Shown: positions 18,052-49,544 of the stretch, piece by piece | Layout: every line of letters begins with the position of its first letter | How positions within the stretch are numbered: position 1 is the first letter of the stretch | Assembly: GCA_051294905.1 (NCBI GenBank) | Contig: CM119371.1 | Span: forward strand, 6,388,001 to 6,452,000 | DNA length: 64,000 nucleotides | Direction of reading: 5' to 3' | Source: Botryllus schlosseri | Taxonomy: Eukaryota | Notes under the pieces: generated by a model | What the model saw: the letters and a program-made list of their open reading frames with translations, nothing else | Databases searched by the model: none | What the model was told of the DNA's origin: nothing | Program-made: the position numbers and the translations under genes

Positions 18052-18498
18052 GTTCTGTAATTTTGACGCTGTTGTTTATGCACAGTTGATTTTGTGCACA
18101 AGTTTTGTATAGTAATACATCAGTTGTGTGATGTGATGGATTTTGGTCTTCGTGACTAGGTGAAAATTTGTGGTTTGTCGAAGGCTTGCAGATTATTGTA
18201 TGGGCTCGCCAGGTTATTTGGAAAAGGTCAAGAACCACTGCTATAAACGTCCCAAATGTTCTATCCGCAGCCAATCTCCATAAAGGACTCTGAAATGTAA
18301 TTGTGATCTTGTATATTGTTGTTTATCACACTGCTCCGTTTTTGCTAATTCCTTCTGTATTTCAGACTGTGTCATAATATAAGAATTATAATACTGTGTA
18401 ATAGCTCATTCCAAGCTATTGTTGAAAACTCGTTTTCAAGAAGAGAGCGGTTGATGTGTCATGCTTGAAGAAGTAAAGTAATATATAGCTAATCCAGA

Positions 18499-19679
18499 AG
18501 AAGGACAAGGAACATCTGTGAAGAGAGCTTCCATCGCAAAGACGGATTGAAAGCTCACTTGCGATTCCACCTTATAGATAAAAATACCGAATGTGAGATC
18601 TGCGGAAAAACCTTTGCTGCAATCACTTTATTGAAACAACATTTACTATCCCACATTTTGAAAAATCATGAACGCACGGGCAATGGCAAAGAGTTTAGTC
18701 TGATCGGTCACTTGAAAAGACATGCGGATACACGTACTCCTCGTCGTGAAGTCAAAAACAAGGACTGTCAGATATGTGGAAAATCGTTTATGCGGGTTGG
18801 CGACCTGAAAACGCATGGAAATATACATACTGGAAGCAAAAGCTATGTATGTCAGATCTGTGGAAAAACGTTTGCACAACTGAGTCGCTTGAAAACACAT
18901 GGACATACACATACTGGTGTAAAAAACTATGTATGTCAGATCTGTGGAAAAGCTTTTAATCGGCTTGGTGACTTGAAAACACATGAGAATACACATACTG
19001 GAGTAAAAAACTATGAGTGTCAGATCTGCGGGAAAGAGTTTGTTTATCTCAGTAACTTGAGAACACATGTGAATACACATACCGGAGTCAAATATTATGA
19101 GTGTCAGATATGTGGAAAAGCTTTTAATCGGCTTGGTGACTTGAAAAAACATGAACATGCACATGCCGGAGTCAAAAACTATGCATGTCAGATCTGCGGA
19201 AAAGCTTTTGGTCGGTTTGGTGACTTGAAAACACATGAAAATACACATACTGGAGTGAAAAATTATGCGTGTCAGATCTGCGGAAAAGTGTTTACCCAGC
19301 TTGGTACCTTGAATAGACATGGACATACACATACGGGAGTCAAAAATTATGCATGTCAGATGTGCGGAAAAGCGTTTACCCATCTTGGTACCTTGAATAG
19401 ACATGGACATACACATACGGGAGTCAAAAATTATGCATGTCAGATCTGCGGAAAAGTGTTTACCCAGCTTGGTACCTTGAATAGACATTGACATACACAT
19501 ACTGGAGTCAAAAATTATGCATGTCAGATCTGCGGAAGAGTGTTTACCCGGTTAGTATCTTGAAAACCCATGTGAATACACATACCGGATTCAAAAATTA
19601 TGCATGTCAGATCTGCGGAAAAGCCTTTACCCGGCTTGGTAACTTGAAAAGGCATGGGAATACACATACAGTAGAATAG
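18499..19679 (+). pseudogene. C2H2 zinc-finger array paralogue, probably a pseudogene (~14 finger units)
   Basis: ORF 18547-19491 starts at TTG; the ATG used by copy A reads AGG here and finger 1 is partly deleted. GGA>TGA nonsense change at 19489, 1-nt deletion near 19551, ancestral stop GTAGAATAG ending 19679. Confidence 0.85.
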
Positions 19680-23400: not shown

Positions 23401-24125
23401 GATATATTGGTCGCTCAATTTTCCGCCGTAGGCGTTGTGACGACTGCAGAGGCGTGCTCATATCCGGTATTAATAATGTTCCAGATATTAATGGCTGCAT
23501 TCCTGAGAGATATAAAACGATTTTTGACATGGCAGATCGTGGAGGACTTGCTGAACCAACTGAAATTTGCTTTGCCATTACATTATTGGCTGTGCAGTAT
23601 TTCTCAGCTGTTTCAGCAGATGAAGACACGTTAAAAAAGTTTATGTGCTGTATGAATCAGCGCAACGTTTTTTTGAATGCAATGCGTTATGTTGTGTCTT
23701 CTACATCTCGTTTTCGTCACCTCATGCATGTCAAATGTAAATCTAGCCATTTGAACTTCAACCTTATTGTGCAAAGTGCTTTCAATTGTTTTGCAAAAAA
23801 TCACCTCAAGCGTTTGAATGCCAGACCGATGCTTGAAGAGGCACCGAAGAAAAACTTTCGCAAGATCTGCAAACTGACTTCGAAGGCTTCTGCAAAATGC
23901 TAAATGGTGTCATATTGACGTCGCCACGACAACTGACTGTGACGTCACCGTGACAACTGACATCCCTATTGTTATTTATTGTGTTATTTCCTAATAAATA
24001 TGTACAAAAGACACGTCCTTGATGTTTTGCGAAGTCTTTTGCAGCTGCTTGGTTGCATCAACATAGGCCTACTTCAGGGCACCTTGAAAAGAGGTGTCCA
24101 ATCCCGGAGTTTCAAGATATCCCTG
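20407..24125 (+). mobile_element. P-element superfamily DNA transposon, full length (3719 bp)
   Basis: ~31-bp TIR CAGGGATATCT(A/T)GAA(G/A)CTC(C)GGGATTGGACA. Perfect 8-bp TSD GCTACAAT at 20399-20406 and 24126-24133. The empty paralogous site is at 10065-10072. Confidence 0.95.
20821..23903 (+). CDS. P-element (THAP9-like) transposase; join(20821..22202,22267..22589,22678..22815,22888..23903), 952 aa
   Basis: N-terminal THAP domain (CCVPGC..FP..W..VCRLHF); RNase H-like motifs LMIDE, STDN, FDFTHNFKN and SDPIEARFG; C-terminal SGYI..CDDC..DRGGL. Three GT-AG introns join 2859 nt in frame without a stop. Confidence 0.92.
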
Positions 24126-27400: not shown

Positions 27401-30400
27401 TAACATTGTACCTTTATACTACATATTTCATATGCTGCGATACGACCAATCGAGGTATACACTGGCCTTTGCAGTGGAAAATTGTACCGAAATTATAAAT
27501 CTTGTATTCATATTAACTTTTTGTGGCAAGAATCGTATCATTTCGTGTCCTTCAAATATCGAGTGACTTTAAACTTGACTCGAGTCACATTAAAAAATCG
27601 AGTAACATGACTTTCCTCGAAAAATCAAATATGGAGTGATTCGATATGACGTGTGACTCGAACACAGTGACACATTTCCAACGTTGCTATACCATGCTTT
27701 TCGCAGCAGGTTGTGTATTGACTAGTCACAATAAGTCACTGCAAAGCAAGCACTGTCCAGTGAGATTTTCCAGGCTGCATTCCACAAAAACTATCGACCA
27801 CCTGCTTGGCTATCACGCCCAGATTTTCGGAAAGTGGACTGGAGCCTAGTTTCAACGGTATGGTTTTTACCATTTTATAATCTGGTTACGGCTGGGCTAA
27901 ATCGAGTTCCTGAGAGACTCGATTCTGGATCGAGTATTTAGTCTTTGAGATGAGTATGGGAGTAACGTCGAAAATAATGTCATAATAGTATGAAAGACGT
28001 GGAAAGTTGCCAGTTACACTTTGTGACAATGCTGAGGGTTGATCATGCCGCGATCACGAATCACAGATATGTCATCAAGGTTTACATCCTTCTACGGTGT
28101 AAAACTGCATCGAAAGAATAATTCTTGTAGTGGCCGCAAAAAAGGTAGATAAATTGAACATTAAACTTATTCCATATCGTTGTCATGCCGTAATGAGTGA
28201 TACTCTATTAAAAGACTGATTGCCGATTTATAATCGAATCAATTGGGTGCTCGATTTCTCCCAGACCTACATAGAACATGAAAATAGCAGCATTTCCTGT
28301 AATTTTTTATTGGGAAGGTTCACCGCTATGCAACATTTGTTGTCAAATTTGACCGTCCCACTAGCTCAATCAGGTTGACAACCACTGATTCAGATGTTCC
28401 CAACGAATAATATTGGTGATTTCACTAGGACAATTCAATTTTTTGATTTTTATTGCCAGTCGCTGATGGAGCTTCACAAAAGACGGCGCGTCATCACAGA
28501 ACCAGAGTCTCGTTATTACATGCCACAGATTCTGCTTGGAGTCGGGGTTGCTGTGATACCAGACTTGTACAAACTACTGGATTCATTGAGATGTGCTACT
28601 AGTACTACAACTAGACTTACGCAATTTCCAAAATTTTCAACTAGAACTAATGCCCATTAGGAATCCACAACTAACTACTCAACTAACAGATGAATTACTG
28701 AATTGCAATGAACTAAGAAATAAGAACATCACACAACAGAACAATGGTATCACGATTCACACCAAACGTGTTTTTACTTGCCCGACAACTTCACATTTTA
28801 AATCTGCAACTAGAACCACTAAAAAAGCAGTCGTTTGTTGGCCATCAACCAACTAGATTGGTAATTCGTACAGGTCTGGATGCTTGTGTAACTAAATGTG
28901 AAATTTGTATTGACAGGAGAACCAATTCCTGAGCAACAACATGAAGATTGGAGATTTGACCTAGCTACCTAAGTTGAGTTTGACAGCCGAACAAAGAACA
29001 CGTTTTGCGGCACATCCAACTAAATTGCCCCGGAAGTTCTAAGGAAATAAAGACACAATTTTAAAGTGGACACCCGGTCGATGTGTTGTTTTATGTGAGT
29101 ATGATGCAGCATTGGGGTGTAAGGGTCTTAGATGTAGAGCTGGAAAATATCGCGCACTTGAGTAATTCAAATCTGAATCGAGTCGAGTATTTGAGTCGCA
29201 TTCATGACAGTGTTAACAACATTATGATTGAAGTGCAGAATTGAAATATGTACCTTTTATGCAACCACAAAGAATATAATGCCAGTTCTACATCATAGTA
29301 AAGATGATTTTATATTTTTTCGACCATACCAATTTCATTACACTTGGTGACAATGCTGTGGGTTGATTCCTTCAGAGATATGTCATTTCCACAAATGTGT
29401 GTAGTTTTGTACGACATAACTCGTATGATGCGATATGACCAATCAATATTTCATGGCTTTGACAGCGGGAAATGATGTCAAAACTATAATTCTCGTTGAT
29501 AGATTTCCTCTCACTGGCCAGGAATGTATCATTTTAAATCTAAAAATATTTTCGACTTCCATCCTTAGAATTGATACTCACTCAGTTTACCAATATCCGA
29601 ATCACTATGACAGTCCTAGCCACAAGCGTCCCACTTGATAACTTGATGCATTTTTTGTTTACTCTAGGTCATCGGTTCTCAACCGGGGGTCCGCGAAGCG
29701 TCCGAATTTGCAAAAGGGTTGATAACTTTTTTTCTTTATTTGGATTTAAATCAGAGAAATCACGAAGCACTTTCGCTACATAACTGCTAAAATTTCAGGA
29801 TCACATAAACAGAACGGCTGTCTGTGATGAATTATTCCACTGTGCAAACTCATTGTAATTGGCAAATTATCAACGGAATACTAAAACTAACAATTCACTG
29901 TTGGGGGTGTTTTGTTGGGGTTTTGGAAAAAAGTGGCGTGGAAAGATTTTTTTCCTTGTTATGCATGACCGCTATTCTAGAATAACGTCAAGATGAGCTG
30001 CTAGATTGAAATGACTAGACTGGATGTTGGATTGGTCCACGTATATTGCGATCTTAACCAAAAGGTGTCATCAGAAATTATCATTGCATTAGCTGCCACC
30101 CATACCCATACGTACTTGTGGAAATGAAATTTCGGCACCCAGTGTTATCAAAACAACGTCGCGGATTTTCAAGACACGACCCCGTATTTAAAAAATGCAT
30201 CTACATAATTCGCTTTGAAATAATATAAAAAAACCTTCCCAATTTCTATATAAATAGTAAGCCTATAATATATTTTCAAGAAAAGTCACTTTTCCCTTTC
30301 TTAATACTAGCCTACAGTAAATATATTTCCCCCGGCAGATGACGGTTGCATGATAATAGAGGTCAATTTAAACTAACACTTGGGGGTCCACGGGGGTCCA

Positions 30401-30490
30401 TGAAGGTCCAGAGCGGGTCTGCGAAGACAAAAAGGTTGAAAACCACTGCCCTAGGTATGCAGACATGGTTGGTCGGTAAGGCGCCGTACT
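24474..30490 (+). pseudogene. plk1: Polo-like kinase 1 pseudo-exon cluster 1 (kinase-domain exons, partly duplicated)
   Basis: Exons: 24474-24622 ([10 protein letters not shown]../[22 protein letters not shown], frameshifted); 25516-25641 (SLME..ITEAETR..IIHRDIK); 26888-27074 (LENLFLN..KIASFGL..YIALE..GHSFE); 28460-28543; 28917-29094; 30455-30490 (WLVGKAPY). Most keep AG/GT borders. Confidence 0.88.
29670..30448. mobile_element. hAT (Charlie-like) MITE inserted at a Plk exon splice acceptor
   Basis: Ends CATCGGTTCTCAACC...GGTTGAAAACCACTG. 8-bp TSD CTCTAGGT (29662-29669) / CCCTAGGT (30449-30456), one mismatch. Confidence 0.8.
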
Positions 30491-30546
30491 GGATTTTCAA
30501 ACTGTGCAACCATAGCACGACTCGCTTTCCAAAATGTGCAACTACA

Positions 30547-33500
30547 AGTAGTATATACGATCGCTCGCGAACGGCTATGGGACTCTTATGGCGGGGTGGC
30601 ACGGTGCCGAGAAAACCGGGGGTGGCACGGTGACCCTTATCTCTTATGGCGGGGGTGGCACGGTGACCCTTATCTCTTATGGCGGGGGTGGCACGGTGCC
30701 ATTGTGTCTTATGGCGGGGGTCGCATGGTTACCTTTTCGGGTATAGGCTGCGGCGGCACGGTGCCGTGAAAACTCGTGGTGGCATGGTTACCTTTTCAGG
30801 TATAGGCGCGGTGACAGGGTGACCTTTCAGGAGAGATGATTTGACTAACGTTGTGGGTATAGGCGCGGCGGCACGGTGTTGAATATGTATCAAGTAAATA
30901 GTCACGTGATTGATTCTTAGTTAATGTGTATATTACAAATTAATATATATGACCGATTCGAGTTGATCCCAACGTTTACGGCGAGTGCGACTTTAATATA
31001 TCGTTATTCTTATGGGCGCCGCGATGATTCGTACTTTCGTTGATAGAATGCTAGCGGCATGTCGTACTTTCACCAAAAAGGGTGTGAAATAGTTTGCTGA
31101 ATCTAGGAATCAGTCGCTTGGTTATTAGTTTACCACGGAACCGGCGTAGACGGCGATTCCAATACCAACAATTGCCGCGTTCACATATTAACACTCCAAA
31201 TAGGTGTGAAATAGTTTGCAAACCCTGCGTTCGCTGACAAGATAATGTCTCAGACATACGCGACTTGATGTTACAGGCATATCGATCGCTCACGCGGTGA
31301 AATTTTCGTAAGCAGTTTGGCACAGAGCTTGATTTCACTCGTACGATTTAATAAGTAACGAATAACAGACCGCCAGTGTCGGTAACTTGAATAGCGACAA
31401 ATTGTCACTTATTTCCGCTCTAACCCTAATCCTTTGTGAAGTGAACGCTTATTCAAAAGGGTGTGATATCATTTTAAAATCCTACGACACTCACAGGGTA
31501 ATGCTTCAGACAAAGCGATCCCTCATGCCCGCTCACAAGGTAATATTTCCGTAATTAGTTTGTCACAGAGTCGTCGCAGACGGTGATTCGTAAACCAACA
31601 ATTTGACACTTTCTGGTATGGTCGCTATATGTTTTTGACACTTTGTCCGTGTTTGACTTTAGTTGTATGATAAGAATCATGCGAATATTCAAGCAATGTA
31701 TCAATCGAATGGAATGAAACTTACTACACAGCTCAAGTTGATTCGTATCTGAATGTGTTAATTCGGTACAATTCTAATTAATTTGAGAAATCTTTTTAAT
31801 GTGATCTTTTGATTCGACCGTAATCTGAATATTACTGACACCGACTTTCAGCCACATTGAATTATTCACACATTCCACGCCGCTGTTTTAACAGTTATAG
31901 AATCAATACCAACTATCTCTAACCCGATAATATTCAATCATTTTGGTAATTTACCAACTTTAAATCCATTCGCGGATGTACTAAAGGTAAATCCAAATAA
32001 TCCAAAATGAAATATTTGGACTTTGACATAGTCTGAATTGAAATAGATTGACAAACATGACTACCAACTTTCCCGCAGTCCCATTTCGATATTATATGCA
32101 CATTGATTTGAAACAAGTAATGAAACATTGCAACTCTATTCGCGATCCCGCTTTCCGTTTGTCAAAGAGATATTTTAGCATCTTACCATACTCAAAAGAA
32201 TTCTTCACAACATTAACAATTGTTAAAAATCTAGTTTTCACTTACTTGATTATATCACTACAACTCACAAACTTGAATTAATTCATCCTGGCTGTATTCG
32301 TATGATCGGTCTTTTTTATTCGATTGTAAAGGTCGTTACTATTCTGAAGACAAAGTATTTACTAATCGGTACATATACGATTTGACTTGGACATATTATA
32401 TTTTGAGTATACGAGATTTGAATGTCCGAACAATAACTGAGAATTAATTTATCACAATTAAATCCGTATATTACAGCGTAAAAGATATTGGGGTGTCAGC
32501 AACTCTGTACGGTCGTAGTTACAACCACATTAACTAATCTACCCAGGCAACTCGTCATGATCATTCCTGAAATCAACACAAACACGACCACTGACTTGAG
32601 TTAACCACGAAACAGCATCAAGTTTTAAATCCGCTTGCAGCTGACGGATTATTCGAATGCATCGATGGAGAATATTATTGAACTCGTCGGTATTGTTACT
32701 TCAACAAATTACACCGACTGCGAAAGTTAATATCGAATGGTAAGACTTGATCACATATTTGTTGATCACAGACATGACAAAAAAAACATTACCGAGATTT
32801 TATAAACTAGTCATATTACTCTACACATCTATCAATATCAAAATGCGAGTCATCCAATTTTTCTACTAAAGTAACATTGCACTTTCGGATTCGGATTCGG
32901 TATAGTCATACAAATTGTATTAAATCCAACATCAAAACAAAAGGAATTTTTTTAGTTTATTGAAATCAAATCATTCGTCTTCGACTTGTGCTTTTCTAGA
33001 TTGCACGCAACAATTCGTTACGAATGAGCTGTAACCAAAGTTAAGAATTCTTTGTGTCCACAGATATAGAAGATGAATATAGCTAACACAATCACGAATC
33101 GACGTTTCAGAGTATTTCACGGATGTAATAAACTTGTTAGTGTCGCCTATCTAAAAGTATGCATGCGTTCGATTTCCATACCGACTGTTGCGATGTTTAG
33201 GATTCGCTTACAATGACAAAGAGTGAGGATTTAACATCAATGTCGTTACTGGAGGTATTCACAACAGAGAATCGAAACATTACACAGTGTGAAAATATAT
33301 CTTTGATATCAAAGCACTATCCCAAGTACACGATTAATACTCAACTCCGTTCACACTTTCTATAGAACGTGCTAAATGTAAAATATCACGAGGTTGCACT
33401 CTAAGACTTTGATCATTACAAAAGTAAATTGAATATGTTTGCTCGACGCATTCAATTCAACTAGAAATGTCTAGTGCACAACAATCGTAATATTAAGGAA

Positions 33501-36500
33501 GTACTTGCTACACTGTAATTCACTAAACGTGTTTTGCATTGTTGTTCATTTGTAGCATTGATTGAAATTGTTTTTTGAACCCTCAAATAATAATTCCCGA
33601 CATGAAACCAAACCGCTGAAAGTCGTTACCAACACAAAGAAACACTTTGTACGATGTTTGCCAAATGTACCCTATGGTTAGGTGTACTAGAATTATTTGT
33701 GTAACACATACACCGACAATGTAATCGAGAATATTTCCGTTGTCATTCGCTAAAGTAAATGTCATCACAATACTCTGTCACTAAAGATCTTACTTGTATC
33801 TGATTGAATCACCGATAATTAACTCGCTAAATCAAACCATAAGGAAATTTCACTCACTCATCAGATATGAAACAGCGTCGCTTAATCGGTGTAGATCGTT
33901 TTTCTAAATGCAAATCATACCTGACCAACAGAAAACAATTTTCACTCACCTTGTAATGAAACCAAGTGGTGGACCTTCGTTCAATATTTTGTTTGTGTCA
34001 AATACTTTGCAATAAACACAGTGGAGTGGTCGAGCTTTACATCAGCAGACTGTAATCTGTAAATCAAGCTTACATCCGACTTGTAACTGTATCGTTTACC
34101 TAACCGAGTTGTATGCACAGTTTGATATTTTTTGTTATTTGGTAATTGCTGAATATACTACTTCGAAATACTCCCTTGAACGTAATTTCCATCATCGTAA
34201 TAATCGAAGTACATTTGTGTCGAATTCGTAACAGCCGACTATGACATGATAAATTTTTGACAAGTTATGCTTGGAAGATTGGTGCATCTCTCGAAAAATA
34301 ATATACCACTCATATTGATACTGTTACTCCATTGACCGGTATTTTCAAACGAGTCGATTTTCAACCGAGCAAAATTTATTACTTGAGTTGTCCCGCTTAC
34401 TATATTTAAATGTAAACTCACCCGTCTTTCAACAACAAACAATGATAAAAAGTACACAAGCAAACACAACAAGTTTTACTTTTGTTGGAGACTAATTATT
34501 ATTCCACACATCTCATTTCATACTATGTGTTTATGAAAGATATTCACGGCACACGAAAATATTCGATATTCCATGCTACGAACATACGCAATGATTGGTG
34601 ACGCTTTCACACTATTTCGATTTAGTGTAACAAAAACAACAACAACAATTTTCACTCTCTTGACTTATGAAAACAACAGACGAACCTTCATTCAATATTT
34701 TGTTTTTGTCAACTAGTTACTTTTTCATGAGACCCCCACAACTCTTACAAAAGTACGAAAGATATTTACATCGCACAAAGTAATCAACTTTACTCGATAT
34801 TCTCACATTACGAAACTAAAGAATGGTTGGTTTGACTCTACAAACTGTTTCGTTACCTCAAGAACTTTATTGTCTGAATGGTTGTTCATGTGTCTTAAGA
34901 ACCAAATAGTTCAACACAGCACTAGTACCAACAGAAACACCAGAGTTGTTAACACAAAAGTTTGCATGTGCGCAGTATGCGAATACCGCGTGTAAGTCCA
35001 GCACAATTGCAGTATCCAACCGAGATTAGTTAACACCAATTTATTACAACGGAGCCACGTAAACTTTCGTGAATGTAAGGCATACTCACTTCTCGAGATT
35101 CTGTCAATGTCATAGCAATAAACCAGCTACTCCAACAACAGAGTACATACGTTTTCTAGTGACGACTCTCGAATCTTTCACATAGATCAAACTACTTTGC
35201 TAACGAAAAGTGCTGAGTCATCATATGGTTATCCTCACTAGTAAAACATACTATCATACAAAATGGTCGTTATAGTTTGCACACCAACGGTACATCGTAC
35301 AAGTAACAAGTCTCGAGAATCCAGTTATTCAAAAAACGTGAAAGTATTTCTACACCAAGTCGTTATGTTGACGAAAGCGTATATTGTAATATCATGATCG
35401 ATTTGCATTCGTTGGCCACAAACTGTCACTACTCTAAATAATTCTTTTTCACTCAAACACAAACGCATATTTGTCACCATTCGTTTTCATCAAGCACGGG
35501 TTCAGGAAACTTACTTACTACGACATGAATTTTTATGTTGTGTAAATAGGTAATAATTAAATCAAGTAACGCTATATCAACATCATCGACTTGTGCTAAT
35601 AGATTTACATGCGGTCTTGTGGTTTTCGTCGGGACATACAGCACGAACTAACTGTAGACTCCTCTCTGTTGTACAACTACTCGGTAATCGAAATGCATTA
35701 ACATGTAAACAACGATCTTGTTTCGTCACACCAAAAATATGTTCACTGTCGCGATACTCCGCACAAGACGTGCATAACCTTTTCACACTCGTAATAGTAT
35801 ACCAACGTCAAGCGATAACGTTTAACAAGACCAACGACACTGAACCCACAACGTTTACCTATGTAAAATTAGCACTTTCACTTGCCAGTCCATCGTTTAC
35901 CTGACTAAACATATTATTTTCCTTTGGAGATCTGACGTTTACCCAGAGTAAGAAACCATTTTCACTTGGAAATATATTTTTTCTCTGGTTAACAAACCTT
36001 TTTTCACTTGGAAATATATTTTTTCTCTGGTTAACAAACCTTTTTCCCTGAGCAACACACCATTTTGACTTGGTGGTCGTCGTTTACCCGAGTAAAAATA
36101 TCATTTTCTTTGGAGATCCGGCGTTTACCCAGTGTAACAATACATTTTCACTTGGAAAAACACTTTTACCTAGAGTAACTAATCATTTCTCCTGTGTAAC
36201 AAACCCTTTTCGTCTGGAAAACTATCATTTGCCTGAGTACCAATACAGTTTTCACTTGGAAATCTATCTTTCACCTGGGTAACAATACCATTTTCGTTTT
36301 GAAAATTGACAACCACACCGAACAATTTGATATTTTTGTATATTGTTACAACGGGCAGTGACAAAATATACACCAACAACGACTCCGATACATTTGTCTA
36401 ATCAAATATTCACTTGCTCTGATGCATCCCATCGAAATCATTGGTTACTCGCATGCAATAACAATGTGCTGTTGTACATCGACATGTATGTTTTCGTAAT

Positions 36501-37033
36501 TGGGGAATAAAGGGGTTTCCGATATGGCCGCGATATGGTTCGCGCTTTGGATTTTCCAGAGTCAAAATGTCTGAATAAAACACCTCCTCGACTTTGGTAA
36601 CTGGTTGGTACACGGATAATGATGTTCGGAAAACGGATGAATTTATGTTCCCCATCGCGCTAACAACTCCGGGTTACTTGTGAGTTTCCTCAGGTCTGTT
36701 TACTATATTGTGTCTTTACCGGTCAATACATGTCGCTCCAGTCAGCTGAAACCGGATCACTAATATGAGAAAGTGTGTGGGCCTGATCCGGATATTCACT
36801 CATGAACCAACGACCAATATTCAAGTAAACATGTTACAGACCGTGTTTTGTCTCCATGAAAAATACCAATGCATACACCATCACATACAAGTAACGTCAC
36901 GATTGTTCACAAGTATTCGCGTAAACGAGGTGTACATACAATGTGTCGGTGTACAAACATCATGGAAAACAAATTCATGTTCTCAAGTATCATCATGCGA
37001 CGACTCTGTACATTCAATGTTGGCATAGATGAC
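30547..37033 (+). repeat. Left arm (6487 bp) of the giant inverted repeat
   Basis: Reverse complement of 38017-44470. It carries one extra 33-bp unit near 30624-30689. Confidence 0.97.
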
Positions 37034-38016
37034 ACACGACATGATACAATGGACAGTGCATTATGCATACCGATATATTCTCAGTCAAATATGCGAACCG
37101 TGTACTATCGCGCATCCCGATTTTCGCTGAATATCCACAACACCAACAAATCTGTACATTTCTTTTCCCTCGACCTCGACGATAGAGTTATCATCCCAAT
37201 GTACCTATCGAGTGTATGGTTCATCAGGTGTAAAATCCAAATCAAATGTCACCAAGGTATCGTTTTTCATTTTCAATATTTCCACCGCTGCATCTTGTCT
37301 GTGTCGTAAAACAACGGTGTGGGGCCAGAGGAATCTATGGACAGTTACGCGTAGTCCCATATTTACTCGTGGGTATACTCAGGTAACGACAACGCTTTCT
37401 CAGTGGTCTGCGTGGGTGAACCGTTTCAATACGTAGCTGGATCAACTAGACCAAAAGTTTCCAACAGTGATTTATGTTGACCTGTCGAGTTACGAGATAG
37501 CACCCTCTTGCGGTGTGATTAACACGAAATAAGCCTTCAACTCACAGAGACACACCTTGGATTACATTATCTAATCGTAATCGAACTCGAGATTCACACA
37601 CACACAGAGTCCCTGTTTACGATTTCAATCCGGAGTCACTGCTCACGATGTTTATCTGTAGTCGTTATGTGGGAGTAGCGACATCTGACATATTCATCGC
37701 GTGAAAGATTGATAACGACGGTGATCGCCAAATACATTATACCATGTGAAACACTGCGGCCTCAGCAAAAAAGTTCGCAGGTTAGCACGAACAATACGTG
37801 GTGGGATTGAGCGAGTTACGCAACCCAATTTTACTATATGTCGAAGTCTGGATCACGATACAAGTCTACCTGAGAATCCGAACAATCTTGCAAAATCAAG
37901 GTGTGAACCCGTGAAAGGACTGTACTCGTGTGAGATTGATTTTTCACAAGTTGGGTGGAGGTCGGTTCATACTAAGACCATGTTACGTCCAAATATGGCT
38001 GCTTGCCTGTCTCCAA
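37034..38016. other. Unique 983-bp central spacer of the palindrome
   Basis: Symmetry stops at ..ATAGATGAC(37033) and resumes at GTCATCTAT(38017). Confidence 0.93.
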
Positions 38017-41000
38017 GTCATCTATGCCCACATTGAATGTACAGAGTCGTCGCATGATGATACTTGAGAACATGAATTTGTTTTCCATGATGTTTGTACA
38101 CCGACACATTGTATGTACACCTCGTTTACGCGAATACTTGTGAACAATCGTGACGTTACTTGTATGTGATGGTGTATGCATTGGTATTTTTCATGGAGAC
38201 AAAACACGGTCTGTAACATGTTTACTTGAATATTGGTCGTTGGTTCATGAGTGAATATCCGGATCAGGCCCACACACTTTCTCATATTAGTGATCCGGTT
38301 TCAGCTGACTGGAGCGACATGTATTGACCGGTAAAGACACAATATAGTAAACAGACCTGAGGAAACTCACAAGTAACCCGGAGTTGTCAGCGCGATGGGG
38401 AACATAAATTCATCCGTTTTCCGAACATCATTATCCGTGTACCAACCAGTTACCAAAGTCGAGGAGGTGTTTTATTCAGACATTTTGACTCTGGAAAATC
38501 CAAAGCGCGAACCATATCGCGGCCATATCGGAAACCCCTTTATTCCCCAATTACGAAAACATACATGTCGATGTACAACAGCACATTGTTATTGCATGCG
38601 AGTAACCAATGATTTCGATGGGATGCATCAGAGCAAGTGAATATTTGATTAGACAAATGTATCGGAGTCGTTGTTGGTGTATATTTTGTCACTGCCCGTT
38701 GTAACAATATACAAAAATATCAAATTGTTCGGTGTGGTTGTCAATTTTCAAAACGAAAATGGTATTGTTACCCAGGTGAAAGATAGATTTCCAAGTGAAA
38801 ACTGTATTGGTACTCAGGCAAATGATAGTTTTCCAGACGAAAAGGGTTTGTTACACAGGAGAAATGATTAGTTACTCTAGGTAAAAGTGTTTTTCCAAGT
38901 GAAAATGTATTGTTACACTGGGTAAACGCCGGATCTCCAAAGAAAATGATATTTTTACTCGGGTAAACGACGACCACCAAGTCAAAATGGTGTGTTGCTC
39001 AGGGAAAAAGGTTTGTTAACCAGAGAAAAAATATATTTCCAAGTGAAAAAAGGTTTGTTAACCAGAGAAAAAATATATTTCCAAGTGAAAATGGTTTCTT
39101 ACTCTGGGTAAACGTCAGATCTCCAAAGGAAAATAATATGTTTAGTCAGGTAAACGATGGACTGGCAAGTGAAAGTGCTAATTTTACATAGGTAAACGTT
39201 GTGGGTTCAGTGTCGTTGGTCTTGTTAAACGTTATCGCTTGACGTTGGTATACTATTACGAGTGTGAAAAGGTTATGCACGTCTTGTGCGGAGTATCGCG
39301 ACAGTGAACATATTTTTGGTGTGACGAAACAAGATCGTTGTTTACATGTTAATGCATTTCGATTACCGAGTAGTTGTACAACAGAGAGGAGTCTACAGTT
39401 AGTTCGTGCTGTATGTCCCGACGAAAACCACAAGACCGCATGTAAATCTATTAGCACAAGTCGATGATGTTGATATAGCGTTACTTGATTTAATTATTAC
39501 CTATTTACACAACATAAAAATTCATGTCGTAGTAAGTAAGTTTCCTGAACCCGTGCTTGATGAAAACGAATGGTGACAAATATGCGTTTGTGTTTGAGTG
39601 AAAAAGAATTATTTAGAGTAGTGACAGTTTGTGGCCAACGAATGCAAATCGATCATGATATTACAATATACGCTTTCGTCAACATAACGACTTGGTGTAG
39701 AAATACTTTCACGTTTTTTGAATAACTGGATTCTCGAGACTTGTTACTTGTACGATGTACCGTTGGTGTGCAAACTATAACGACCATTTTGTATGATAGT
39801 ATGTTTTACTAGTGAGGATAACCATATGATGACTCAGCACTTTTCGTTAGCAAAGTAGTTTGATCTATGTGAAAGATTCGAGAGTCGTCACTAGAAAACG
39901 TATGTACTCTGTTGTTGGAGTAGCTGGTTTATTGCTATGACATTGACAGAATCTCGAGAAGTGAGTATGCCTTACATTCACGAAAGTTTACGTGGCTCCG
40001 TTGTAATAAATTGGTGTTAACTAATCTCGGTTGGATACTGCAATTGTGCTGGACTTACACGCGGTATTCGCATACTGCGCACATGCAAACTTTTGTGTTA
40101 ACAACTCTGGTGTTTCTGTTGGTACTAGTGCTGTGTTGAACTATTTGGTTCTTAAGACACATGAACAACCATTCAGACAATAAAGTTCTTGAGGTAACGA
40201 AACAGTTTGTAGAGTCAAACCAACCATTCTTTAGTTTCGTAATGTGAGAATATCGAGTAAAGTTGATTACTTTGTGCGATGTAAATATCTTTCGTACTTT
40301 TGTAAGAGTTGTGGGGGTCTCATGAAAAAGTAACTAGTTGACAAAAACAAAATATTGAATGAAGGTTCGTCTGTTGTTTTCATAAGTCAAGAGAGTGAAA
40401 ATTGTTGTTGTTGTTTTTGTTACACTAAATCGAAATAGTGTGAAAGCGTCACCAATCATTGCGTATGTTCGTAGCATGGAATATCGAATATTTTCGTGTG
40501 CCGTGAATATCTTTCATAAACACATAGTATGAAATGAGATGTGTGGAATAATAATTAGTCTCCAACAAAAGTAAAACTTGTTGTGTTTGCTTGTGTACTT
40601 TTTATCATTGTTTGTTGTTGAAAGACGGGTGAGTTTACATTTAAATATAGTAAGCGGGACAACTCAAGTAATAAATTTTGCTCGGTTGAAAATCGACTCG
40701 TTTGAAAATACCGGTCAATGGAGTAACAGTATCAATATGAGTGGTATATTATTTTTCGAGAGATGCACCAATCTTCCAAGCATAACTTGTCAAAAATTTA
40801 TCATGTCATAGTCGGCTGTTACGAATTCGACACAAATGTACTTCGATTATTACGATGATGGAAATTACGTTCAAGGGAGTATTTCGAAGTAGTATATTCA
40901 GCAATTACCAAATAACAAAAAATATCAAACTGTGCATACAACTCGGTTAGGTAAACGATACAGTTACAAGTCGGATGTAAGCTTGATTTACAGATTACAG

Positions 41001-44000
41001 TCTGCTGATGTAAAGCTCGACCACTCCACTGTGTTTATTGCAAAGTATTTGACACAAACAAAATATTGAACGAAGGTCCACCACTTGGTTTCATTACAAG
41101 GTGAGTGAAAATTGTTTTCTGTTGGTCAGGTATGATTTGCATTTAGAAAAACGATCTACACCGATTAAGCGACGCTGTTTCATATCTGATGAGTGAGTGA
41201 AATTTCCTTATGGTTTGATTTAGCGAGTTAATTATCGGTGATTCAATCAGATACAAGTAAGATCTTTAGTGACAGAGTATTGTGATGACATTTACTTTAG
41301 CGAATGACAACGGAAAAATTCTCGATTACATTGTCGGTGTATGTGTTACACAAATAATTCTAGTACACCTAACCATAGGGTACATTTGGCAAACATCGTA
41401 CAAAGTGTTTCTTTGTGTTGGTAACGACTTTCAGCGGTTTGGTTTCATGTCGGGAATTATTATTTGAGGGTTCAAAAAACAATTTCAATCAATGCTACAA
41501 ATGAACAACAATGCAAAACACGTTTAGTGAATTACAGTGTAGCAAGTACTTCCTTAATATTACGATTGTTGTGCACTAGACATTTCTAGTTGAATTGAAT
41601 GCGTCGAGCAAACATATTCAATTTACTTTTGTAATGATCAAAGTCTTAGAGTGCAACCTCGTGATATTTTACATTTAGCACGTTCTATAGAAAGTGTGAA
41701 CGGAGTTGAGTATTAATCGTGTACTTGGGATAGTGCTTTGATATCAAAGATATATTTTCACACTGTGTAATGTTTCGATTCTCTGTTGTGAATACCTCCA
41801 GTAACGACATTGATGTTAAATCCTCACTCTTTGTCATTGTAAGCGAATCCTAAACATCGCAACAGTCGGTATGGAAATCGAACGCATGCATACTTTTAGA
41901 TAGGCGACACTAACAAGTTTATTACATCCGTGAAATACTCTGAAACGTCGATTCGTGATTGTGTTAGCTATATTCATCTTCTATATCTGTGGACACAAAG
42001 AATTCTTAACTTTGGTTACAGCTCATTCGTAACGAATTGTTGCGTGCAATCTAGAAAAGCACAAGTCGAAGACGAATGATTTGATTTCAATAAACTAAAA
42101 AAATTCCTTTTGTTTTGATGTTGGATTTAATACAATTTGTATGACTATACCGAATCCGAATCCGAAAGTGCAATGTTACTTTAGTAGAAAAATTGGATGA
42201 CTCGCATTTTGATATTGATAGATGTGTAGAGTAATATGACTAGTTTATAAAATCTCGGTAATGTTTTTTTTGTCATGTCTGTGATCAACAAATATGTGAT
42301 CAAGTCTTACCATTCGATATTAACTTTCGCAGTCGGTGTAATTTGTTGAAGTAACAATACCGACGAGTTCAATAATATTCTCCATCGATGCATTCGAATA
42401 ATCCGTCAGCTGCAAGCGGATTTAAAACTTGATGCTGTTTCGTGGTTAACTCAAGTCAGTGGTCGTGTTTGTGTTGATTTCAGGAATGATCATGACGAGT
42501 TGCCTGGGTAGATTAGTTAATGTGGTTGTAACTACGACCGTACAGAGTTGCTGACACCCCAATATCTTTTACGCTGTAATATACGGATTTAATTGTGATA
42601 AATTAATTCTCAGTTATTGTTCGGACATTCAAATCTCGTATACTCAAAATATAATATGTCCAAGTCAAATCGTATATGTACCGATTAGTAAATACTTTGT
42701 CTTCAGAATAGTAACGACCTTTACAATCGAATAAAAAAGACCGATCATACGAATACAGCCAGGATGAATTAATTCAAGTTTGTGAGTTGTAGTGATATAA
42801 TCAAGTAAGTGAAAACTAGATTTTTAACAATTGTTAATGTTGTGAAGAATTCTTTTGAGTATGGTAAGATGCTAAAATATCTCTTTGACAAACGGAAAGC
42901 GGGATCGCGAATAGAGTTGCAATGTTTCATTACTTGTTTCAAATCAATGTGCATATAATATCGAAATGGGACTGCGGGAAAGTTGGTAGTCATGTTTGTC
43001 AATCTATTTCAATTCAGACTATGTCAAAGTCCAAATATTTCATTTTGGATTATTTGGATTTACCTTTAGTACATCCGCGAATGGATTTAAAGTTGGTAAA
43101 TTACCAAAATGATTGAATATTATCGGGTTAGAGATAGTTGGTATTGATTCTATAACTGTTAAAACAGCGGCGTGGAATGTGTGAATAATTCAATGTGGCT
43201 GAAAGTCGGTGTCAGTAATATTCAGATTACGGTCGAATCAAAAGATCACATTAAAAAGATTTCTCAAATTAATTAGAATTGTACCGAATTAACACATTCA
43301 GATACGAATCAACTTGAGCTGTGTAGTAAGTTTCATTCCATTCGATTGATACATTGCTTGAATATTCGCATGATTCTTATCATACAACTAAAGTCAAACA
43401 CGGACAAAGTGTCAAAAACATATAGCGACCATACCAGAAAGTGTCAAATTGTTGGTTTACGAATCACCGTCTGCGACGACTCTGTGACAAACTAATTACG
43501 GAAATATTACCTTGTGAGCGGGCATGAGGGATCGCTTTGTCTGAAGCATTACCCTGTGAGTGTCGTAGGATTTTAAAATGATATCACACCCTTTTGAATA
43601 AGCGTTCACTTCACAAAGGATTAGGGTTAGAGCGGAAATAAGTGACAATTTGTCGCTATTCAAGTTACCGACACTGGCGGTCTGTTATTCGTTACTTATT
43701 AAATCGTACGAGTGAAATCAAGCTCTGTGCCAAACTGCTTACGAAAATTTCACCGCGTGAGCGATCGATATGCCTGTAACATCAAGTCGCGTATGTCTGA
43801 GACATTATCTTGTCAGCGAACGCAGGGTTTGCAAACTATTTCACACCTATTTGGAGTGTTAATATGTGAACGCGGCAATTGTTGGTATTGGAATCGCCGT
43901 CTACGCCGGTTCCGTGGTAAACTAATAACCAAGCGACTGATTCCTAGATTCAGCAAACTATTTCACACCCTTTTTGGTGAAAGTACGACATGCCGCTAGC

Positions 44001-44470
44001 ATTCTATCAACGAAAGTACGAATCATCGCGGCGCCCATAAGAATAACGATATATTAAAGTCGCACTCGCCGTAAACGTTGGGATCAACTCGAATCGGTCA
44101 TATATATTAATTTGTAATATACACATTAACTAAGAATCAATCACGTGACTATTTACTTGATACATATTCAACACCGTGCCGCCGCGCCTATACCCACAAC
44201 GTTAGTCAAATCATCTCTCCTGAAAGGTCACCCTGTCACCGCGCCTATACCTGAAAAGGTAACCATGCCACCACGAGTTTTCACGGCACCGTGCCGCCGC
44301 AGCCTATACCCGAAAAGGTAACCATGCGACCCCCGCCATAAGACACAATGGCACCGTGCCACCCCCGCCATAAGAGATAAGGGTCACCGTGCCACCCCCG
44401 GTTTTCTCGGCACCGTGCCACCCCGCCATAAGAGTCCCATAGCCGTTCGCGAGCGATCGTATATACTACT
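38017..44470 (-). repeat. Right arm (6454 bp) of the giant inverted repeat
   Basis: Reverse complement of 30547-37033. Substitutions found at 33733/41317, 36662/38388 and 37021/38029. Confidence 0.97.
38755..39200 (+). repeat. Degenerate 41-42-bp tandem repeat, about 10 units (mirror copy at ~35850-36295)
   Basis: Units resemble GAAAATGGTATTGTTACCCAGGTGAAAGATAGATTTCCAAGT and GAAAATAATATGTTTAGTCAGGTAAACGATGGACTGGCAAGT. Confidence 0.75.
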
Positions 44471-47400
44471 ACTACAACTACTTACTTTCCCAAGTCCACA
44501 ATTAGAAATAGAACTAGTCAGAGAAAGACGTAGTGAGTTGCACGTCACGAAACTAGATTGGTATTTGTACGAATCTCAATTTCAGGCAATGATCACCAGA
44601 AAGACAATATGTGTCGAGAGATCATCTACATCACGTTTTGAATCACAAGCACTTCATTGGATTTCACAGATTGTTCCAAGACAAGAATTTGTCGACATCG
44701 TTATTGAGTTGTGCTCAAGCAGGGTAAAAGCATTCCCACGTTACAATTGTAATGTCTTCCAAACTGTGGCGCAATTGCATCAGCCCTAATGTTCATTTCT
44801 AGCAGACTTGGACAGCTAGAACATTCTTATCGAATTATCTTAATTAGAACCAAATCTTGGTAATCTAGTTTTAACCTGGTTTATCAAAGCTTTTACGTCC
44901 ACATTTTAATTTCATATAGCATAACTGTATCGTATGAAACAGGCCAAGCTTGGTGTGCAGCTATTTTCTATTCTCCTGCTATATGAGAATAAATCTGGAA
45001 TTATTATCAAGTAAACTTGATTTTCGCACTATTTCTATGATGAATAGAGTAATTAAAATTCTAATCTAATTTGGAAAGGCTTGTATAGCTATCATGCTAA
45101 TTCTGGTCAAGTCTATAATGTCATGATTCACTCAAAATGAAGACGTGTGTTTTCTAGTTGATTGGCAGCTGAAATTATTTTAAATTCACAAATAGAATTA
45201 GGACTAGAACTACTCACTTTTCAAAATCCGCAACTAAATCTAGTACCCGGTATCTGAATTCCAGGCATTGCTCGTGGATGATCACCAGAAAGACAGAATG
45301 TGTCGTGATTGAAACTGCGATGGAGGTTGATCTCTCAAGTACGTCGTTGGATTTCACGGAGTTTGTCGACATCGTTCTCGAGTTGTGCAAACGAAAGGTA
45401 AAAGTATTTCATTGTTACGAATGTAATGTCTCTCAAACTGTGCCGGTCGCAAATGCATCAGCTCTGTAACGTTTATTACTGGTAGACATGGACAACCAAT
45501 TGATATCAAGTAAACTGATTTTGGTGTGTTTCATTTGCGGATTCCGTAATTCTAGTCTAATTTGTAAAAACTCTATGAAGCTGTAACTCTTATTTCAATC
45601 ACACTTTGGAAGACACAGTGGCTACAATTGTAATTCTCATCTAACGTAGAAAAAAAGCTGTGTAGCTATAATTTTAATTCTAATCTAGCATTGAAAAGCT
45701 GGAAATTTAGTTACACGACTTTGAACATTAGGGAGGGTCACAATGATTCGAGTACTCGGATCTGAGTTGAGTATTTATTCTAATAGTCAGAGTCGAGTAG
45801 TGAAATACGATTTTTATTGTAGTACTGAAATAATATGCTCCTTGCCCCAAGTGGTAAATTATTAACAATAAACTGAACTAAACTGAAGTGAGGGTAAATT
45901 CAGCAATGAGAACTATGGCTTCGATAGTATTTCCCACTGCGGAAAGCTGTGAACCTTAATAGGTCGTAACAGAGCATACGAAACATGTAGCACAAAGATG
46001 AACTAGTTACTAGAATGGACATATCTTTAAAGTCGTGATAAACTCACGGTATTGTAACAAAGTGCAATGAAATAGGTATGCTCTACAGAATTTACAAATT
46101 ATCGTAAAGCTTAAAAGGTAGTCTACACATTTTAACTTTCCGCATCATCCATACCGGTATGACATCATAATTAGTGAGTGATACTCGGATACTCGACTCG
46201 AAGCCTGATACTCAATTTAATTTCAAATCAGTGAAGCACTCGATTTCACCATACCCTACGTATGACAACTCAAATATCAAAAAGGCATCATGAAAGGCAG
46301 TTTTCAATTTGAGAGTTCATCGGTTCAAAAAATTTTATTCAGATTTTACCGGACCGCTATCTCAAGTAGGTTGAGATTCTCTGATTTAGATGTTCCCAAC
46401 AAATAATCTTGTGTTTTTTTCATCCTAGCAATCTGATTACCTTTAATTTATGTTTCAGTCGGTGATGGAAGTTTACAGAAAAGACGCGTCATCACAGAAG
46501 CAGAGACTCGTTATTGCATGCGACAGATTGTGATTGGCGTCGTTATCTTCACGATTGTAAGATCATTCACAGAGGTATCAAGGTAATAATTGTAGTGTAG
46601 TTGTCTAATAAAACTAATTAGAGAGGCTGCCTGTAATCTAATTGGTCAAATCTTTCTATGTTCTGATTAATCTCATTTCTAGTTCTCCTGAAATTGCTAC
46701 AGGAGAACTGTATCGTGCAAAAATAACCAAGCTCTGAATCTTGAATCTCTTCCCATCCACGGAATACGTTCACAATATCCGATCCAAATGTAGATTCTTA
46801 TTATAGTTCTAACTCCACAATTCTTGATTTCTAAATATATTTGGAAAATATATGTGAGTTAGTATCTGTGATTTGATTATTATCTGTGCATTTCTCACTA
46901 GAATGTTGGCAAGCGACCCGTTTCATTAAACCTCCGGCGACCGAATTCGTCAACGGCTACATGCCACAGAAACTGCGCACGACCGGACTGACCATGACGC
47001 CCAGGTTATCGGAAAGTCGTCACCAAAGCGTCCTTTGCAAAGTTTGGACGGTAAGATTTTTTTCGTGGGGCTTAGCAAGCTCGAGTTCCTGATTAATTCA
47101 ATTCTGAATCGAGTATTGCATTTCCAGCCGCGTAGTCGAGTCTCACACATTATAAGTTGAGCCCGGTCGATATCGTACTTTGAGTCGAAAACGAAAAGTA
47201 GCACCTTCACCGATAACCCCGATATGTTCAGCCGATATTGAAATATTATGTCATCTAGCTTAAGTCACATTTCCTAAAGCTTCAGAGCATTTATTTGAAC
47301 AACTTTGCGCGCTGGCCCGCGACCACAAAAAGGTTTGAAAACCACTGATTTAGATGTGTCCAACAGATAATATTGTTGTTTTGCTGCTATCAATACTATA

Positions 47401-47905: not shown

Positions 47906-49544
47906 GAGTAAGTCCACGTCAAATTAACCGCACTCGTCACCAGATTGCAATGAAAATGGAGGGGTAAATCAGGTAACCAATTCTGACTGCAGCAAACTTA
48001 ATTTTGTCAAAATTGGTCCACCCATCACAAAGTTATCGCATTTTAAAAAATGGCCATTTTGTGCTCACCCAACCATGAAATTTAATTACTTTTACATTAC
48101 CTGTTACAGTAACGCTTATAAAACAGCATAGTCAAGTACTTGAGAGTGGATCATGATGTCTAATGATAGAATAGAAGAAACTCTTGCTATTGAAGGGAAA
48201 TTGTCATTTAATCAAATGGGGACAGGGGTTAAAACCCACCTCATAAACCGACACTTTTCAAAATCGTTCATGCGTAACATGAACTTGAATTATATCTAGC
48301 GTAATTCTGTCTACACGAAAATTGGAAAGTAACATATCATATGAAAGCTTGTTTGGAAAGGAACATGGTTGACATGTTTTGCTAACTAATATTTGACAGA
48401 TAGTAGCTCTAAATTAACTTTACATAAATATTTCTGAATGCATGGGGTAATTCAATTTGAGATTAATCAAAAGAGAGATTGGGTATCTCTTAAATTTCAG
48501 ATTTTGCTGAAATTTGGCTTAAAACACCATGAAGTACATCCAAGTAAATATCAATTTATTTTAAATGAATTACATATGTAGTTTTCAAGTTATTGCATGA
48601 TAAAAAACAAGCTTTTTATGCTCATCCAACCGCGAAATTCAAGTGATTTTTTAGGCTGATTTGAAATTTTCTGTAAATAAGCTATTTTGACAATTAAAGA
48701 GTTGTTCTATTTGTTATGTTGTATAAATTGATCTATTCTATCATGCCGGACAAAAATTACTGATTTTTGATTGACATCCCAAAATGTCACTCATTAACCC
48801 CAGAAACCACTGAAGCGTAACAACAATATTTCAGGGGTCTCTCTCATTTCTGTCTACTTCAAAATTTTTGTAAATGGTGTCATATGAAAGCTGTTAGAAA
48901 AATGAATATCTAGAAAATGAGTAACATGCTGGAGTTTGTCTCAAGGTAACACAGCAACTACAATATCAAAATCAATTTTTAGGAAAATCACTACATTTTC
49001 ATGACCTGAAATATACCCTGTTTTCAAAACTTCGTAAGTAAATATTACATAAAAACTTATTTTCTAAGGAATCTATACTACAACAGCTTTCATATGCCAC
49101 CCTTCATAACTTTTTTCAAGTAGACAGAAATGAGAGGGAGACTCCTGAAATATTGTCATGCTTGAGTGATTTCCAGAGGCACCGTCTTTCAACTTGAGCT
49201 AAATTTTGGGGCGTGCACCAAAAATCATTAATTTCGCACTTGAATGATAGAATAGATCAATTTTTACAACATAACAAAGTGAACAACATTTTCAGGTCAA
49301 AGTAGCTCATTTACAGACAATTCCAAATATACTTAAAAACAGCCCTTCAATTTCACGGTTGAATGGGCATGAAAAGCATGTTTTTCATCATGCGATAACT
49401 TCAAAACTACTAAAGTAATTGATTTCAAATAAATTGCGATTTAGTGAGCTATACTTCATGATGTTTTGAACCAAATTTCAGCAAAATCTGACACTATGTG
49501 GTGACAAAATCCATTTTTTTGGTTGATCAGACATGGAATTACCC
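47906..49544. mobile_element. Foldback non-autonomous DNA transposon, Sola2-like
   Basis: Ends GAGTAAGTCCACGTC...GACATGGAATTACCC with a 4-bp TACT duplication (47902-47905, 49545-49548). A second left end starts near 48446, and 48446-48900 is a diverged inverted copy of 49080-49544. The superfamily is inferred only from the GRG ends and the 4-bp TSD. Confidence 0.6.

Follow-up and report, generated by a model that had tools for sequence, protein, structure and literature searches.

How can a DNA element that carries no gene be moved around a genome, and what keeps its two halves almost identical while its copies diverge from each other? These questions are raised by a palindromic element of Botryllus schlosseri at positions 30547 to 44470 of a stretch of 64,000 nucleotides (GenBank assembly GCA_051294905.1, contig CM119371.1, positions 6,388,001 to 6,452,000 of the forward strand), which we call the window. 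We find that the element is a non-autonomous derivative of the Polinton/Maverick group and that it belongs to a large family of palindromes. As to the second question we lean, by a small amount only, towards a lineage which is mobilised in trans and in which fold-back synthesis, in the course of protein-primed replication, copies one arm anew from the other; the fold-back step is one that we infer.

The palindrome and its family

An end-to-end alignment of the two arms resolves the element into an inverted repeat of 6487 and 6454 nt around a spacer of 983 nt. The arms thus account for 12,941 of the 13,924 nt (93%), and the dimensions given by the first-pass annotation, which had been made from the letters of the window without database searches, are borne out. 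An inverted-repeat search returns 100% complementary blocks at 30650-37033 and 38017-44400 (6384 nt, with 983 nt between them), and the outer 119 nt (30547-30665 and 44352-44470) are likewise 100% complementary. In the whole-arm alignment three positions are substituted, which lie 3187, 6116 and 6475 nt inward of the outer end. Besides these there is a single indel near nt 71, where the left arm has one more unit of a 33-bp subterminal tandem repeat (3.6 copies, compared with 2.6 in the right arm); tandem arrays in the arm are confined to 30617-30765 and 35949-36305. The element begins with AGTAGTATATACGATCG and ends with CGATCGTATATACTACT, that is, AGTAGT...ACTACT. The hexamer ACTACA can be read on both flanks as an exact 6-bp target site duplication (TSD), and the symmetry of the arms stops there, again as annotated. 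The features are as follows, none of them with an assigned strand; TIR stands for terminal inverted repeat.

30541-30546: left copy of the TSD, ACTACA; the identical hexamer is found at 44471-44476
30547-37033: left palindrome arm, 6487 nt; three substitutions and one 33-bp indel relative to the right arm
30547-31047: terminal 0.5 kb (approximately) in common with autonomous Polintons, beginning with AGTAGTATATACGATCG; 80-88% identity to the TIRs of three autonomous copies
30598-30878: seven subterminal GGCACGGTG motifs (six in the right arm); overlap with the 33-bp tandem repeat at 30617-30733
35949-36305: arrays of a 41/42-bp tandem repeat in the inner arm; mirror copy at 38745-39101
37034-38016: unpaired spacer of 983 bp, the would-be hairpin loop and a conserved part of the family; recurs genome-wide
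38017-44470: right palindrome arm, 6454 nt, ending with CGATCGTATATACTACT; from the inverted-repeat search and the arm alignment
44471-44476: right copy of the TSD, ACTACA; matches the left hexamer

The longest stop-to-stop frame inside the element has 149 aa (36860-37309). The annotated limit of 146 aa was therefore close enough, if not exact. A frame of 155 aa (44322-44789) crosses the right end into the flank. A Pfam search of the 22 arm and spacer frames of at least 60 aa gave nothing credible, the sole row being S_4TM with E = 0.013, which is under its cut-off, and Rfam gave 0 matches over 30000-45000. Bulk RNA-seq places 98 reads on both strands of the arms; 91% of the placed sequence continues into unlike sequence. 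These reads probably come from other copies of the family and give no information on expression.

The assembly that we searched comprises 495 Mb in 219 contigs. In it the terminal 354 bp of the element have at least 63 matches, mostly in plus/minus pairs 8-32 kb apart. The pattern AGTAGTN{4,7}GATCGSTCG occurs 970 times in forward and 967 times in reverse orientation, compared with 1 and 2 occurrences of a backwards control. One variant of this pattern, which accounts for 8 of the first 100 listed, occurs unpaired and is probably not part of this family. Where termini are paired along the first 25 Mb of contig 1, the distance between them is mostly 12.9-15 kb. A 30-mer from an inner arm, searched with up to two mismatches, is found 464 and 478 times on the two strands and not once in the control. 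Its first 100 listed occurrences include 38 tight minus/plus pairs about 1.6-1.75 kb apart and 24 singles. Each such pair brackets a spacer, so that there must be several hundred palindromic centres of this inner-arm type alone; the inner arm and spacer of the window element are of a different type.

For closer analysis we fetched eight terminus pairs and afterwards another five, together with ten loci centred on spacers and a few others. Sixteen elements have both ends readable, and 15 of them show an exact 6-bp TSD; the remaining one agrees in five of six positions (ATCGGA/ATCGGG). A copy at C6:29.1 Mb is without a right end and stands outside these sixteen. The same layout with different 6-bp TSDs, to which the first-pass annotation had looked as a check, is thus present at further loci. 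Its recurrence at many loci, every one of them flanked by a separate 6-bp TSD, excludes chance and confirms the inverted repeat as real.

Could the palindrome nevertheless be an artefact of assembly or of reads that fold back on themselves? Among the reads and contigs at hand none spans the element, as one might expect of an artefact. The layout is, however, the same at 13 further loci, 12 of which have a TSD of their own (11 exact, one 5/6) and one of which has no right end. Several copies carry nested insertions in one arm only, and inverted inner-arm pairs are found by the hundred across the genome. We give this explanation practically no credence. Two observations on the reads were set aside. 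A read contig ends exactly at 30546, which is no evidence for a boundary, as unitigs break at repeats anyway; and a joint of 30449 to 45057, across 14.6 kb, was disregarded, as one of its sides is only 21 nt long and it does not sit at the TSD.

Two further observations concern insertion. CG occupies positions 3-4 of the TSD in 10 of the 16 elements (for example ATCGTA, CACGTC, AACGTT and ACCGGT), and three more have TG or CA there, which suggests an NNCGNN target preference of a chromodomain integrase. Members of the family are also nested in one another, at C1:97149-129104, C1:32.99-33.02 Mb and C1:16768420-16810257. The nests include an inner copy of 16.1 kb with the TSD CTCGAC within an outer one and a copy of 13.4 kb within the left arm of another; at C1:16768420-16810257 the order of the termini suggests a triple nest.

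Polinton ends and probable helpers

Which enzymes could move such an element? We sampled three elements with short TIRs (619, 763 and 1120 bp) in the same genome, at C7:7.03 Mb, C1:34.9 Mb and C1:40.8 Mb. They are 15.8-16.5 kb long and full of long open reading frames (ORFs). The protein content was scanned in the copy at C7:7.03 Mb only. This copy encodes a DNA polymerase B of the protein-primed type (pPolB; 1295 aa, PF03175, over the cut-off), an rve integrase of 359 aa which includes a chromodomain, and an A32/AAA-like ATPase of 217 aa, and it is flanked by the 6-bp TSD ATCGTA. A further ORF of 432 aa has DJR-like capsid clusters as neighbours (score 0.98; the clusters are mostly from arthropods); it is likely a double-jelly-roll capsid protein, which we regard as a lead only. 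A genome search with this polymerase gave 385 first-look candidates, of which 36 were scored; these 36 are near full length, and 30 of them are without a stop. To judge from these sequences, the autonomous partner looks recently active, and the short-TIR Polintons are the probable helpers of the palindromes.

The first 30 nt of the window element are identical to those of C7:7.03 Mb. Its outer 0.5 kb (approximately) is 80-88% identical to the three autonomous TIRs, with 88% over 396 nt to C7:7.03 Mb, and nt 104-396 (293 nt) reach 97.6% to C1:34.9 Mb. Within this region six or seven GGCACGGTG motifs lie at about nt 52, 78, 111, 144, 176, 226 and 291, at the same positions across copies; all three autonomous copies keep these positions, as do four of the five palindromes examined. 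The array may provide cis sites for replication or integration proteins of the helper. Thus the assignment of the ends to Polintons, made earlier from the termini and the TSD, is upheld by an autonomous element which has the same end together with pPolB, rve integrase and a 6-bp TSD.

The genes themselves are missing from the palindromes. We compared every ORF of at least 80 aa of the three autonomous copies by tblastn with seven palindromes. The only matches are to terminal frames and to fragments of a helper ORF of 188 aa, and no remnant of pPolB or rve integrase was found in the seven palindromes, the window element included. As had been annotated, the window element is thus free of Polinton genes by Pfam as well as by tblastn with the helper ORFs, and since it carries none it would have to be moved in trans. 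The shared ends and the TSD suggest that helper proteins mobilise the palindromes.

These ends also bear on the idea of a DNA transposon, Foldback-like or other, that has no relation to Polintons and has AG...CT ends by coincidence. The long inverted arms and the subterminal tandem repeats would suit such an element. But 0.3-0.45 kb of its sequence is 88-97% identical to TIRs of elements bearing pPolB and integrase, the first 30 nt are those of C7:7.03 Mb, the TSDs are 6 bp throughout, and relatives carry a fragment of a helper gene in their arms. We therefore consider a coincidence of this kind extremely improbable.

The 188-aa ORF is informative about the origin of the arms. In the helper it is found close to the right TIR, on its inner side, and it is not part of the TIR of C7:7.03 Mb; hence it marks one particular end of a Polinton. 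Fragments of it are found in both arms of three of the seven palindromes, namely C4:14.7 Mb (aa 37-172 at about 90%), C15:1.7 Mb (aa 118-188) and C3:35.8 Mb (partial). As the same end-proximal ORF is present in both arms, both arms of these relatives derive from one Polinton end. The window copy keeps TIR-level sequence only, which cannot distinguish the two ends. For the remaining 5 kb (approximately) of the arm there is no counterpart in the three sampled helpers. The notion that the arm is a copied Polinton end is supported for the outer 0.5-1.5 kb, which are recognisable, and is unsupported for about 5 kb, which match no ORF of the three sampled autonomous copies.

A smaller instance of end-copying is seen in the helpers, as the left end of C1:40.8 Mb has about 350 bp more of right-end sequence than C7:7.03 Mb. 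Separately, we note that nt 178-260 of the C1:40.82 Mb copy (L011), which are flank, match nt 1656-1574 of C7:7.03 Mb at 93%. The flank thus resembles the left interior of another Polinton, so that this copy sits inside an older one.

Two candidates for intermediate forms were rejected. A one-armed copy of 6.6 kb at C1:21.6 Mb might have been a progenitor without the palindrome. Of 3217 candidates 40 matches were scored, and no second one among these has its junction; a deletion in place is therefore more likely. An ORF of 1311 aa at C1:23.7 Mb, considered as a missing link bearing pPolB, is the pol of a nested Ty3/gypsy element.

Inherited spacer and concerted arms

Is the palindrome made anew in each copy or inherited? 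Seven fetched copies have a common spacer of 910-953 bp, which can be aligned end to end at 84-90%. The 983-bp spacer of the window is of another type and shares only about 250 bp with the former, at about 74%. It recurs at full length at 40 scored places, its own included, with 91-100% identity. In eight of ten fetched spacers of this type the sequence continues into the arm on both sides; in the other two (L043, L044) one side is interrupted. From the recurrence of the spacer together with its junctions we conclude that the arm/spacer junctions are old and inherited and were not made in each copy. The subfamilies, which are 70-96% alike, are all palindromic.

The first-pass annotation had proposed that one end of a Polinton genome was copied back onto the other. 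The derivation of both arms from one Polinton end is supported, in relatives of the window element. It is also true that the palindromes come near to the length of the helper genome (12.1-13.9 kb for intact ones compared with 15.8-16.5 kb; shorter derivatives exist). The idea that a full Polinton genome gave rise to the element in one copy-back event, as a sporadic defective by-product, fails on other points. The palindrome, the spacer and its junctions are common to hundreds of copies in diverged subfamilies, all of which are palindromic, and about 5 kb of each arm has no helper counterpart. Nor can the copies be segmental duplicates of one such locus, which is excluded by their different TSDs. 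We regard a single event as very unlikely, and that part of the proposal is given up.

Within one copy the arms are 98.5-99.95% alike over 4.6-6.4 kb. In a segment of 2.66 kb, compared in eight copies, the left and the right arm differ at 0-10 of about 2600 sites (0-0.38%), whereas the same segment differs between copies by 0.8-11%. In all eight copies the nearest match of the left arm is the right arm of the same copy. The arms are moreover mosaic. Compared with the arm of C4:8.8 Mb, the window arm has 10-12% substitutions in the terminal 800 nt, 0-0.5% over nt 801-3600, then 12-14%, then 3-4.5%, and 20-40% toward and in the spacer. As both arms of each copy are nearly identical, every boundary of these blocks is symmetric. 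Without copying of arm onto arm, the arms of one copy should be at least as different as the copies are. Such a copying process thus exists.

Clues to its nature come from the differences that remain. Over the 4 kb next to the spacer, nine copies contain 59 substitutions between the arms which fall, outward in steps of 500 nt, into classes of 22, 9, 8, 4, 3, 3, 4 and 6. In six intact copies the fifths of the whole arm, from the outer to the inner, contain 8, 5, 7, 6 and 23 substitutions, with no rise at the outer edge. Seven spacer-centred loci gave 10 substitutions in 3360 nt and no clear trend over 480 nt; three of the ten fetched (L043, L044, L045) had been dropped, one arm being interrupted within 500 nt. 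The spacer itself carries more private substitutions. In six close copies there are 118 in 889 columns of the spacer and 127 in 2785 columns of the adjoining 3 kb of arm, a 2.9-fold excess per site, as would suit a loop which passes through a single-stranded stage. In the same six copies the private substitutions are also strand-asymmetric, with 27 T>C and 7 A>G in the spacer and 34 and 17 in the adjoining arm, a small sample.

Insertions have been found in both arms as well as in one. At C6:29.11-29.13 Mb (L036/L037/L048/L049) a TIR-bearing transposable element (TE) of 1282 bp, TAGGGTTGCCATA...TATGGTAACCCTA, flanked by AGTC, occupies the mirror site of both arms. The inner junction is the same in both, and the right arm breaks off 951 bp into the TE. 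The right terminus of this copy is absent within 7 kb, and none at about 100% identity is among 40 scored genome-wide matches. One-sided changes are a gypsy element at C1:23.7 Mb, a stretch of 1.4 kb at C3:35.8 Mb, and nested family members at C1:0.1 Mb and C1:33.0 Mb, each of them confined to a single arm. The long terminal repeats of the gypsy element are identical over 258 of 258 nt; it is hence too young to date its host copy.

We suggest that the palindromes are replicated and maintained in these following steps. They keep only the cis parts of a Polinton, namely the termini (AGTAGT) and the adjoining subterminal 0.5 kb (approximately), in which the GGCACGGTG array lies. The protein-primed polymerase of the helper would replicate them, and the rve-chromo integrase would insert them in trans, which would give the 6-bp TSD. 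Both arms would descend from one Polinton end, and the palindrome with its spacer of about 1 kb would have been passed down through the whole family. During strand-displacement replication a displaced or incomplete strand could fold on itself into a hairpin of 6.4 kb with a loop of about 1 kb. Either the polymerase switches to the displaced arm or the folded-back 3' end is extended, so that one arm could serve as template for the other, in the manner of panhandle, copy-back or snap-back synthesis. Whatever one arm had acquired, be it a substitution, a recombinant block or an insertion, would thereby become symmetric. If copying proceeds outward from the point of pairing, the stretch next to the spacer would be renewed least and the loop would be left single-stranded. 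Fold-back copying matches the gradient at the inner edge, the excess of substitutions in the spacer and the symmetric TE. The same process, acting over shorter stretches, would account for the growth of TIRs among the helpers.

The chief alternative is that the arms are equalised after integration by intrachromosomal gene conversion, with the same Polinton-derivative identity and without any part for replication. Arms which are 99.7-99.95% alike around a spacer of about 1 kb are what such conversion would leave. Gene conversion, however, needs homology on both sides, and both edges of the arm should therefore lag; only the inner one does (23 substitutions in the inner fifth, compared with 8 in the outer fifth). 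The blocks that are 12-40% divergent and contain indels are symmetric in every copy and would be poor substrates, and the one-sided changes persist at C3:35.8 Mb, at C1:23.7 Mb and in the nested members. We hold gene conversion as the sole explanation to be possible but rather unlikely. The two processes do not exclude each other.

Several points weigh against fold-back copying and must be set beside it. The reads seen are short contigs which are unable to span an arm, and no extrachromosomal, hairpin or packaged form was seen among them. A single copy, C10:10.7 Mb, contributes 9 of the 22 innermost substitutions, and a raised mutation rate at the centre of a chromosomal palindrome could mimic the gradient. 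The symmetric TE at C6:29.1 Mb is the only such pair among the scored matches and so could have been copied across in place, as gene conversion would have it. In the nest at C1:0.1 Mb the arms differ less in the outer and thus older element (about 20 differences in 5942 nt) than in the younger element inserted into it (about 31 in 5310 nt); these are rough counts derived from identity percentages, and the contrast is marginal. Such a nest fits conversion in situ, or arms that were unequal at integration, and not a clock-like divergence from identity. Finally, six of twelve non-autonomous copies match the termini of the three sampled helpers over 64-114 nt only, so that other helper lineages must be assumed.

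A more far-reaching version of fold-back copying is that the palindromes are satellite genomes, similar to defective interfering ones, of an active animal polintovirus. A helper-dependent replicon of about 6.5 kb would have been doubled into an inverted dimer of a packageable 12-14 kb, would replicate by way of snap-back hairpins which the protein-primed polymerase of the helper makes, would recombine with its kin during co-replication and would re-enter the germline through the helper integrase. The lengths of the palindromes fit a packaging window, if packaging does constrain size. We offer this version tentatively and consider it doubtful.

The remainder of the window contains further features. 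Open frames of 567 and 332 aa at 4928-6631 and 18493-19491, about 13.5 kb apart, consist of C2H2 zinc-finger repeats with a period of 84 bp, in which Pfam recognises 17 and 11 fingers; they are likely exons of paralogous zinc-finger genes. A frame of 465 aa at 20809-22206, in which a THAP domain is joined by a TNP-like RNase H N-terminal domain, is a P-element/THAP9-like transposase, and the adjoining frames at 22172-22630 and 22866-23903 gave no Pfam match. A small separate inverted repeat at 48497-49491, with arms of 156 nt which are 83% complementary and 683 nt apart, is possibly another non-autonomous DNA transposon.

Comparison with known systems

To our knowledge the replication of Polintons has been inferred from their genes and never observed. 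In the roughly 500 gene-less palindromes, strand-displacement replication with fold-back intermediates would have left a footprint in the genome that can be tested. If the satellite version is true, they would be the first lineage of Polinton satellites, and the genome would preserve a record of how Polintons replicate in vivo. The family would also show that a polintovirus-like element can sustain a long-lived and diversified dependent lineage, which bears on the question whether animal Polintons behave as viruses, with size-limited packaging and defective genomes, or plain transposons. On the practical side, near-perfect palindromes of 13 kb which make up more than 1% of the genome pose a risk to both assembly and annotation, and hairpin RNA may arise from them.

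In the literature we found no account of palindromic, defective or satellite derivatives of Polintons; Repbase was outside this search, and an earlier naming there is possible. The term 'non-autonomous polinton' was found once, applied to Tlr1. With Polintons (polintoviruses) the palindromes share the AG...CT termini, the 6-bp TSD and 0.3-0.5 kb of terminal sequence with subterminal motifs. They differ in being without any gene and in having arms of 6.5 kb in place of TIRs of 0.6-1.1 kb. Enlarged TIRs are known from butterfly Polintons, where, according to the preprint 10.1101/2025.02.07.637071, TIRs of about 2 kb duplicate end-proximal genes. The TIRs of 619, 763 and 1120 bp found here behave alike, whereas the butterfly elements stay autonomous and their TIRs are a minor part of the element.

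Protein-primed replicons such as those of adenovirus and phi29 displace a single strand whose inverted ends can pair. Incomplete particles of adenovirus are said to contain molecules derived from one genome end (Daniell, in 1976 and 1978), and hairpin plasmids derived from pGKL1 of the yeast killer system were reportedly described by Kikuchi in 1985. For phi29, the review PMC4974454, citing Murthy 1998, attributes subgenomic molecules from one genome end to template switching by the polymerase. Template switching and the origin from one genome end are the features in common. The products of phi29, adenovirus and pGKL1 are extrachromosomal and arise in the laboratory or in infection, whereas here a high-copy family is integrated in the germline.

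A snap-back defective viral genome is defined, in the review PMC13506859, as a highly symmetric palindrome from one genome end. The palindromes resemble snap-back and copy-back genomes in that architecture and in a dependence on a helper, which is here probable. Such genomes are mainly known from RNA viruses and are de novo by-products with variable junctions. The palindromes described here, in contrast, have fixed and inherited junctions, form an old and diversified lineage, are integrated in the genome with TSDs and consist for the most part of arm sequence that is not of the helper.

Two other kinds of palindrome are similar in shape. Foldback transposons have arms of tandem subrepeats and TSDs of 9 bp. 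Very long inverted arms, subterminal tandem repeats and mostly non-coding copies are common to both, whereas the arms of the window family are mostly unique sequence and come with 6-bp TSDs and Polinton ends. Large genomic palindromes, for example those of sex chromosomes, are kept alike by gene conversion from arm to arm. They too have arms which are more than 99.7% alike around a spacer and which evolve in concert; they are not mobile, however, whereas here hundreds of copies have individual TSDs. What is new, in our view, is a non-autonomous Polinton derivative in which a snap-back architecture has become fixed and is propagated together with concerted arms.

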